In this document: piece after piece, positions 1 to 3,000 of the stretch
Layout: each line of letters opens with the position of its first letter
How positions within the stretch are numbered: position 1 is the stretch's first letter
Assembly: GCA_039794845.1 (NCBI GenBank)
Contig: JAUQVK010000013.1
Location: 380-64,074 of the forward strand
Direction: 5' to 3'
DNA: 63,695 bases
From: Thermostichus sp. DRC_bins_24
GTDB lineage: Bacteria; Cyanobacteriota; Cyanobacteriia; Thermostichales; Thermostichaceae
Made by a program: the position numbers

Positions 1-3000
1 GTCGACTGAATAGACGTTGTTTGGCGAAAATTGTTGACCGCGTTGTCCCCACGCCTGTGGGGGTGAACCGCCATGGTGGTGGACAAAAGTATTTTGTTTA
101 ATGTTGTCCCCACGCCTGTGGGGGTGAACCGCGTTGTGGGTGAACGATTTGGCAGCGATGATGTGAGTTGTCCCCACGCCTGTGGGGGTGAACCGATACA
201 TACACGGGTAAATGCACGGAGAAAAAGCGTTGTCCCCACGCCTGTGGGGGTGAACCGGCAGGCTCAGCGTATCCGCGTGCGACCCTGGCGGTTGTCCCCA
301 CGCCTGTGGGGGTGAACCGTTGCGCCAGGAACTAGCCCTAATCCAAGGAGCCGTTGTCCCCACGCCTGTGGGGGTGAACCGCGCTTTTAGGCTACGATTC
401 TCAACAGGTTTTTTCCCTCTTCATTGGGGCTTAGGTAGTGCGAAGGCAGGAAGCCCTTACATTACTGGCAAAGCACCAAAGCACGCTGAAGGATTTTGGT
501 GTAAAGTCCCTGATTCTATTTGGTTCAGTGGCAAGGGATGAAGCGCGAACAGACAGTGATGTCGATCTACTGGTAGAGTTCGATCGCCCGGTCGGGTTGT
601 TCACCTTTATACGATTGAAACGGTATTTGGAGGAGATTTTAGGGAGTTCGGTTGATCTGGGTACACCCGACTCCCTCAAACCTGATCTACGGGAACCTGT
701 TTTCCGGGAGGCGATTCGTGCCTTCTAGAGATTGGCAAAATAGAGTAAGAGATGTACAAGCCGCGATTGCAGAGATTCGAGAGTTTACAAACAACACCAC
801 GTTCGATGAGTTTCAAGATGATCGAAAGACAATCAAGGCAGTTCTATATAACCTTGCAACTATTGGTGAAGCGATTCGTGGTATTCCACCAGAGTTGGAG
901 GCTTTACACCCTGAGATCCCCTAGGACGATGTGCGCGGGATGCGAAATGTTGTGATTCACGAATATTTTCAGGTAAATCTATCCATTGTCTGGCAAACAA
1001 TGTCCCCACACCCATGGGGGTAAACCGCTAAATACGTTTTGCCTCCACAGTTTTGGGTAAAGAAAGGGGATCCGGCAATTTTGCCACCGACAGTTCCCAG
1101 CCATTGCCTAGAGTGAAAATGGTTTCTTCGGCTTCTTGGCGTTTAGCCACCACCGCCTCTTCTAGATCTTTTTTGGGGACATAGACCATCAAATGGCCAT
1201 AGGCACTTTCGTGGAGGATAACTTTCATGGACTTTTCTCCAACAACTGCAATTCTTTAGCACGACAACCGATGATAAATCCTTTGGCCAGTGAATGCACG
1301 GCATAGATATAAAACCGCTGCAAAAAGGTGCCAATGTAAACCACATAGCCTTCGTCTCCAGGGTAGGCCAAAATGGTTCCTCTGGCTGCGCCAAAGTAGG
1401 TGCCATCATTACGAATGATCTCACGGATGCGAACTTTATCCCCTAGGCCAAATAGGGGTGGTTGATCCAGTTCATTTTCAGGGTCTGGGTGCACGGCTCC
1501 CTCCTTGGCAGTGGCTCAGCAACTGGCAACATTCTTGATAGGTGAGGCTACGCCCCAACTGGCGGGATTTTTGATAGATAGCAGCCAAAATTTGCTGGCT
1601 CTTGGTATCTACAATCGAGCGTTTAGCAGACATAGGGATCGATCTCCGATAAAAGGTCTTGGGCCCAACGGGCCAATTCGGCCACAGGGATCGGATGTTT
1701 GGATTGCATTACCTGCTGCCGTACCCGTTGCAAGATTTCCTCCAATTGATCGGACGGGATCCGATCGAGGGGGATCCCTTGCTCCTGCAGCAGCTGGACC
1801 AGAAGATGCCTGCCGGAATGTTTGCCCAGCACCAGGCGACGCTGGCCGCCCACCGTCTCTGGGGAGAAGGGTTCGTAGGTTTGTGGATCCTGGAGTACCC
1901 CCGCCGCATGGATCCCGGATTCATGGGCAAAGGCGTTATCCCCCACGATCGCCTTCCAGGGGGGCAGTGGGGTGCCCGTAGCCTGGATCACTTGCTGCGA
2001 TAGCTCCCGCAGACGATGGGTATCAATACCGACATTTACCCCGACAATCTGCCGTAGGGCCATCACCACTTCTTCGAGAGGAGCATTGCCGGCCCGTTCC
2101 CCCAGGCCATTGACGGTGGTGTTGACGGCGGTAGCCCCGGCACGGATCCCGGCCAGAGCGTTGGCGGTGGCCATGCCCAGATCATCGTGGGTGTGCATTT
2201 CCACCGGGATCCCGATGGCCTGCACCAGGCGCTGGATCTGCTCGTAGGTGCTAAAGGGATCCAAAATGCCCACCGTATCGCAGTAACGGAAGCGCTGGGC
2301 CCCCCAGCTCTGGGCCTGCTGGGCCAGCTCAATCACCTGCTCTGGGGTAGCCCGGCTGGCATCCTCGGCCCCCACCGACACCCACAGCCCTTGCTCGTAG
2401 GCCATTTGTACACACTGTCGCAACTGCCGCAGCAGACGGGGGCGATCTCCCTGAAACTTGGCCTTGATCTGGATATCCGATACCGGCACCGAGATATGAA
2501 CCCGCTTGAGACCACAGCGGATAGAAGCCAGAATATCGGCAGGGACGGCCCGGTTCCAGCCCAGCAACTGGGCCCGTAGCCCTAGCCCTGCGATGGCCTG
2601 GATCGCCTCGGTTTCGACGGCCCCCATAGCCGGGATCCCGACTTCGATCTCCGGTACTCCAACAGCATCCAGCAGGGCCGCAATCGAGATTTTCTCTGGG
2701 ATCCGAAAGGCAACCCCGGCAGCCTGTTCCCCATCCCGCAGAGTGGTGTCATTGATGATGATGGAGGGGATCATAATTTTTCTCCTGAACAATCCAGAAG
2801 TGTCCTTATTGCCTTCATGCTGCTGAGTCAACACCGCCGGGGGTCAAAACTGCCGGCAATCTTTTTAGGCTGATTAAGCTAACCTTTTGAGATTGCCGAG
2901 CAGCTCGACTTGTGCCGGCAACCACCGGAGCCACTAGCGAATCAAGTCAAAGGAAATATCGGTCTTGCCGGGAATGAAGCTGCGCCGATCTGCCTCATCC

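Follow-up and report, generated by a model that had tools for sequence, protein, structure and literature searches.

Gene-sized mobile DNA has been described between the repeats of CRISPR arrays in Sulfolobus: in S. islandicus LAL14/1, about 2 kb of pING1-like plasmid (SiL-E1) lies between identical repeats with more repeat-spacer units after it, and the authors took the lack of unaccounted bases as an argument against illegitimate recombination (PMC3718332), and in S. solfataricus an 899-bp piece of a pNOB8-like plasmid occupies locus F (PMC4390879). In Streptococcus pyogenes, prophage PhiAP1.1 is joined to CRISPR repeats, often to a degenerate terminal one, by an integrase that leaves attL and attR with an 8-bp core (10.1101/2020.10.09.333658). 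The genome of the nitrogen-fixing cyanobacterium Thermostichus sp. DRC_bins_24 carries an insert that resembles the Sulfolobus cases in placing gene-sized mobile DNA between CRISPR repeats, in being restricted to one lineage and in having an unproven mechanism, and that resembles PhiAP1.1 in joining foreign DNA to a terminal repeat. It differs from the former in its donor (an integron cassette), in its CRISPR system (type I-E) and in its less clean ends, having none of the three properties listed above for SiL-E1, and from the latter in lacking an att pair. No report of an integron cassette inside a CRISPR array was found in the open-licence literature, supplements and subscription papers lying outside that scope.

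The window is the whole stretch of DNA that was analysed, 63,695 nucleotides of JAUQVK010000013.1 (positions 380 to 64,074); coordinates are window positions unless another contig of the same genome (G000) is named. The sequencing runs that best match the window are labelled as hot-spring metagenomes, and none of the matching runs listed is an RNA data set. The contig holds 11 perfect 29-nt repeats with spacers of 32-35 nt, of which six lie in the window (Table 1) and five upstream, beyond an N gap near the contig start. In relatives, an identical repeat follows cas3-cse1-cse2-cas7-cas5-cas6-cas1-cas2 and a leader in the same orientation; the array is therefore of type I-E, and the window holds its trailer end. 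The survey's finding that 617 bp after the last perfect repeat contain an MNT antitoxin gene and a broken HepT toxin gene is borne out by the repeat coordinates and by Pfam matches. This interval ends at a diverged repeat that is in register at 999-1027, has a G+C content of 47% against 57% for the genome, and is known as an insert between repeats from this genome only.

Table 1. Features at the trailer end of the type I-E array and in the adjoining insert
Position	Strand	Feature	Remark
42..381	+	Trailer end of the type I-E array, with six perfect repeats (loop GCCT) and five spacers of 32-35 nt	Oriented by the order cas2, leader, array seen in relatives
353..381	+	Last perfect repeat	
382..389	.	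8-nt linker matching no cassette homologue	Stub of a spacer or old flank of the array
390..437	+	Truncated cassette promoter and 5' UTR	Lacks its upstream part; -10-like box altered
438..728	+	MNT antitoxin gene, 96 aa	Frame open; GS-X10-DXD motif intact
718..1001	+	HEPN/HepT toxin pseudogene	Overlaps MNT; last 17 codons lost
994..1019	-	Terminator-like hairpin (repeat stem) with T-rich tail (from hepT), 8 bases past the nifT stop	Weak: 2 found versus 1.4 expected in shuffles
1001..1027	+	5'-clipped terminal repeat, loop ACCC	Right border of the CRISPR-cas island
1028..1228	-	nifT	Stop codon abuts the terminal repeat

MNT-HEPN (type VII, HepT/MntA-like) pairs consist of an MNT gene followed by an overlapping HEPN gene, with the motifs GS-X10-DXD and RX4HXY as defined in PMC11586414. 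The window has the same order and overlap, with an MNT gene that retains its motif upstream of a HEPN gene; it differs in that the toxin is evidently dead and in that scores fall under the type VII equivalog cut-offs of NCBIfam (60), with 46.9 for MNT (MntA) and 41.2 for the intact HepT of the relative G004 (HepT). The antitoxin gene was rightly called intact, given its uninterrupted frame, its motif and a match to NTP_transf_2 (PF01909) of 55.6 bits (cut-off 21). The description of the toxin gene as broken and cut at its 3' end also stands: codon 69 is a TAG (922-924) with HepT-like matches on both sides, and in addition to the loss of its end no translatable HEPN with RX4HXY is present, the motif lying past the stop.

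Changes specific to the window at columns that are invariant in 12 relatives affect the promoter, the ribosome site and both genes, including the change from Trp to stop. About half of the coding changes are synonymous (8 of 14 in MNT, 6 of 11 in hepT), and much of the divergence therefore appears to predate the decay. The promoter and 5' UTR segment agrees with the closest copies at 38-40 of 48 bases, as against 46 of 48 among those copies themselves, and no sigma-70-like site was found in it. Of 24 other genomes with the unit, 9 have it disrupted, a minimum because one frameshifted copy was counted as intact, and four of these combine an intact MNT with a broken HepT. In G037 (L007/L073), a short palindromic insert and an inner deletion disrupt the unit, which is also cut 5 bases past the break point of the window.

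Those 24 genomes are the ones, out of 400 others in the class, in which the unit is matched at E 1e-40 or better. The closest fetched copies are 92% (G264) and 91% (G068) identical; copies of 93-96% exist in the metagenome runs X1 and X2, with upstream parts that are not readable. There are attC-like sites on both sides of the unit in four genomes, a count that is partly circular as the attC profile was built from these very loci, and on one side in four more; in many others none was found. A strict attC pattern missed sites that a looser pattern and the profile detected, and an Rfam search of eight loci returned two weak chance matches and no attC. Hairpins of attC type occur in G264, G068, G004 and G162; folding of four of the sites as bottom-strand hairpins gave z scores of -3.0 to -5.8 for three and 0.0 for the downstream site of G004. 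G162 has a complete integron, with 870 bp between the unit and an intact intI; in G004 the distance to intI is 27 kb. On this comparison with relatives, the unit evidently derives from an attC-bounded integron cassette, as had been proposed. The 87% identity to G004, with its flanking attC-like sites, was reproduced; a match of 83% beside intI was found too, in G006 (2.7 kb from an intI remnant) and not in G002, to which it had been ascribed and which has no match.

Compared with the integron cassettes, CALIN and stray cassettes described in 10.1101/030866, the homologues are alike in being bounded by attC, one of them beside an intact intI; the window copy differs in that neither attC nor a core site was found in the window, and IntI therefore should not be able to move it. 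Elsewhere in G000 there are an intI with an internal TAG (C45:4741-5478), a 3' piece of a second intI (C40:6-125) and four lone attC-like sites among ordinary genes (C83:9220-9299, C112:19852-19912, C35:14334-14418 and C15:36110-36187). Cassette debris is ordinary in these genomes. No CRISPR array was found with relatives of the unit, which occupy 118 partly overlapping loci; a search of viral contigs for MNT confirmed none of 21 candidates, and plasmids yielded three distant partial matches.

Alignment of the insert to the cassettes places both of its joints away from the repeat boundaries. The window retains 612 (390-1001) of the approximately 885 bases of the G264 cassette and lacks 111 bases at the start, 87 bases up to attC and the 86-base attC itself; both ends were evidently cut inside the cassette. 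On the left, homology begins at 390 rather than 382. Where the window has the intervening 8-nt linker, 11 of 19 pattern matches have a stretch with GGTG at its end; the linker matches the start of none of 604 spacers of relatives, and the pattern of linker plus promoter has no match in viral contigs. The linker as a cassette start fits G004 only, and not the closer copies, and was rejected. On the right, positions 999-1001 are xAT in 21 of the 23 homologous matches, with AAT as in the window in seven, and both the closest copies and the intact ones of X1 and X2 (records 7 and 11) part from the window at 1001. Since hepT homology extends to 1001, the two apparent mismatches at the start of the repeat are hepT bases: the joint lies 2-3 bases inside the repeat, of which bases 1 and 2 are absent and base 3 (T) is at most shared. 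The insert thus does not end exactly at the repeat, as had been claimed.

Nor does the insert appear to have been caught in the place of a spacer. Only an inner part of the cassette is present, separated from the left repeat by 8 nt and reaching 2-3 nt into the right one, where a spacer would be flush with both; the right repeat is clipped and of another loop variant rather than a full duplicate; no further repeat-spacer unit follows; and the insert measures 617 nt, as against the 32-35 nt set by the Cas1-Cas2 length ruler (PMC5059440). AAG is the PAM of type I-E systems, and it stands at neither end of the donor, whose flanks are GTG or GGT and TGA in copies of 91-92% identity, the true donor not having been seen.

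Against the repeat of the array itself, the terminal repeat has four differences in bases 4-29; against the ACCC-loop variant, found in G001, G006, G008 and G017, it has two. Loops are uniform within arrays: only two of 637 repeats in 32 fetched regions deviate, by one base each, in a count that misses repeats with more than four core mismatches. The chance that decay of the array's own repeat would yield the ACCC loop, with two of four changes at those two places, is about 0.02. Decay at the 3' ends of arrays is known (PMC4869251); the last repeat of several related arrays is perfect, and solitary leftover repeats are common. The terminal repeat is most likely derived from another, older array. 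Single I-E repeats also occur after cas2 in G004 (L059:9388), where cas3 is frameshifted, beside a tRNA-like gene on C3 of the same genome (L060:268), and in G006 without cas genes (L066:5977). The clipped repeat may end nif transcription, a terminator-like role that might explain why it was kept.

A large nif cluster occupies 1028-14863, with nifT, nifZ and nifV identified by Pfam; the remainder, named from translations, we take to be nifK, D, H, U, S, a ferredoxin, B and E-like genes. Farther along the window, members of a dispersed repeat family of about 100-190 bases, MITE-like or IS-end-like, lie in both orientations at 22370-22473, 22671-22800, 36453-36644, 37323-37359, 41073-41261 and 58978-59149, two of them beside tRNA genes (tRNA-Leu, 22179-22261; tRNA-Gly, 59163-59233), and a pentapeptide-repeat-like gene with a 15-base period is found at 58180-58923.

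In six of seven related loci an MFS gene adjoins nifT with no repeat between them; in the seventh the contig ends. In G000, the MFS gene is on contig C42 beside WYL and a type I-E cas3, which point toward the contig end. By this synteny, C42:335-5552 and window positions 1-1027 would be the two ends of one I-E CRISPR-cas island between the MFS gene and nifT, with its middle unassembled. Genes for cse1, cas7, the rest of Cascade and cas1-cas2 of the I-E locus, and the leader, were not found in the G000 assembly, in which the cas1 genes are I-C-like and type III-associated only; cse1 to cas2 likely fall in the assembly gap. Directly after cas3, on the minus strand, C42:20-235 is a degenerate mini-array of three repeats. 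Its first spacer opens with 11 bases that are found again, preceded by AAG, at 30 bases from the contig end, the expected start of cse1; in G004 and G008, cas3 runs directly into cse1. The mini-array looks like a CreR-type autorepression element, as described for the I-E system of Salmonella (10.1101/2023.03.10.532045). CRISPR-like repression of the toxin-antitoxin promoter by the mini-array was considered, and no match was found.

The insert might conceivably be a chimera in which the assembler joined a CRISPR contig, an abundant cassette and a nif contig, given that the array has an N gap and is at a contig start and that X1 contains a second copy of the cassette, about 94% alike and more abundant (depth 45-47), which lacks the stop codon and diverges from the window at 1001. 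Contigs bridging the two junctions had been reported, and X1 does contain them, one covering 353-479 with no differing letters (depth 20.4) and another covering 879-2600 with 15 differing letters (depth 18.6); among the contigs listed none spans the insert, the middle of which is represented in X1 by a contig of the abundant copy that overlaps each joint contig by 30 bases. X1 may be the source sample, so its support is not fully independent. Both joint contigs have depths resembling that of the nif genes, and the hepT stop codon is on the very contig that differs from the window at 15 places. The pairing of depths supports the assembly as given, and a chimera is hardly credible. In X2, a contig (record 13) runs from the nif side up to 1001, and its last letter mismatches at 1000, a position at which the window and a full repeat would not agree; this hints at an allele that lacks the insert but does not prove one.

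The raggedness of the ends favours ordinary DNA rearrangement over capture as a giant spacer. One feature counts against rearrangement: the right joint falls within 3 bases of the repeat start, where a random break would seldom occur, and this position is explicable by a shifted Cas1-Cas2 attack or by an IntI event at GTT. A young array could have received a 620-bp piece from Cas1-Cas2 as its first 'spacer', with further spacers added afterwards and an ancestral loop retained in the oldest repeat; a first, leader-side attack shifted by 2-3 bases would be expected to yield a full left and a 5'-clipped right repeat with the insert between them, as is seen, and the pseudo-spacers in print (PMC3718332, PMC4390879) provide precedents. 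Such a capture is nevertheless improbable, because it leaves the 8 linker bases and the donor flanks without explanation and must accommodate four inner differences between the repeats, two of which give the loop of another lineage, whereas every other spacer measures 32-35 nt and none of 605 intervals in the arrays of relatives holds a long insert. A spacer matching the cassette could instead have recombined with incoming cassette DNA, as proposed for SiL-E1 (PMC3718332), but donor DNA would then be flush with the left repeat, none of 604 spacers from relatives matches the cassette beyond 12 bases, and the right joint would still lack a cause; we regard this route as highly unlikely.

The alternative of an integron integrase rests on the resemblance of the repeat start, GTTGTCC, to the cassette core GTTRTGC (six of seven positions in G264), with the right joint at that triplet: IntI would have used the GTT as a secondary site for a whole cassette, and two later deletions would have taken the cassette start and attC. 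The host carries intI remains, cassette entry at secondary sites is known (10.1101/030866), and use of repeats by a phage integrase has been published (10.1101/2020.10.09.333658). The details fit poorly, however: besides the missing attC and core site and a linker that recalls the G004 cassette alone, a G^TT crossover would leave one more T than is present, the loop difference is unaccounted for, and among 33 matches to a pattern of attC end plus repeat in 185,579 genomes none is such a joint (32 are not repeats and one is an ordinary spacer end). This, too, is an unlikely account. The broader proposition that cassette DNA landed in a CRISPR repeat, whether through mis-registered Cas1-Cas2 acting on about 620 bp or through IntI at GTT, with Cas6e cuts at the two repeats releasing an antitoxin mRNA under the CRISPR leader, is improbable.

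The insert is best explained, and rather probably so, as a defunct piece of an MNT-HEPN cassette lying where a horizontally acquired I-E island ends, with two imprecise events, recombinations or deletions, having joined it to what remains of an older array. The last perfect repeat would be the true end of the present GCCT-loop array, and the clipped ACCC-loop repeat a remnant of an older array at the same site. Cassette DNA would have come between them either as a passenger beside the incoming array or as a stray cassette that landed there, and would have been trimmed when two inexact joins formed by illegitimate recombination or deletion. All of this could have happened in a single step if the present I-E locus displaced another, anchored by homology on one side and joined illegitimately on the other; the route would be homology-facilitated illegitimate recombination. 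No relative showed an older ACCC array between the MFS gene and nifT, and the order of events is a proposal; comparison of cas3 between ACCC- and GCCT-type loci gave a patchy pattern, and no clear duplication was seen at the left border of the island. Loss of the toxin end and the stop codon would have removed addiction, because of which the remaining unit would decay. The insert would be inert as a spacer, and at most the antitoxin may be read through from the array transcript.

By the tests run, the insert thus appears to be real, derived from a cassette, dead, present in one genome and not a spacer. If capture were true after all, a normal I-E system or an integron integrase could write gene-sized cassette DNA into CRISPR repeats, and if repeats were landing sites there would be a direct link between two bacterial DNA-capture systems. 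As a rearrangement, the locus would be one more case of mobile debris at the trailer end of an array and the trace of one I-E locus replacing another, and it warns that a gene between two repeats should be taken for a giant spacer only once its joints have been checked.
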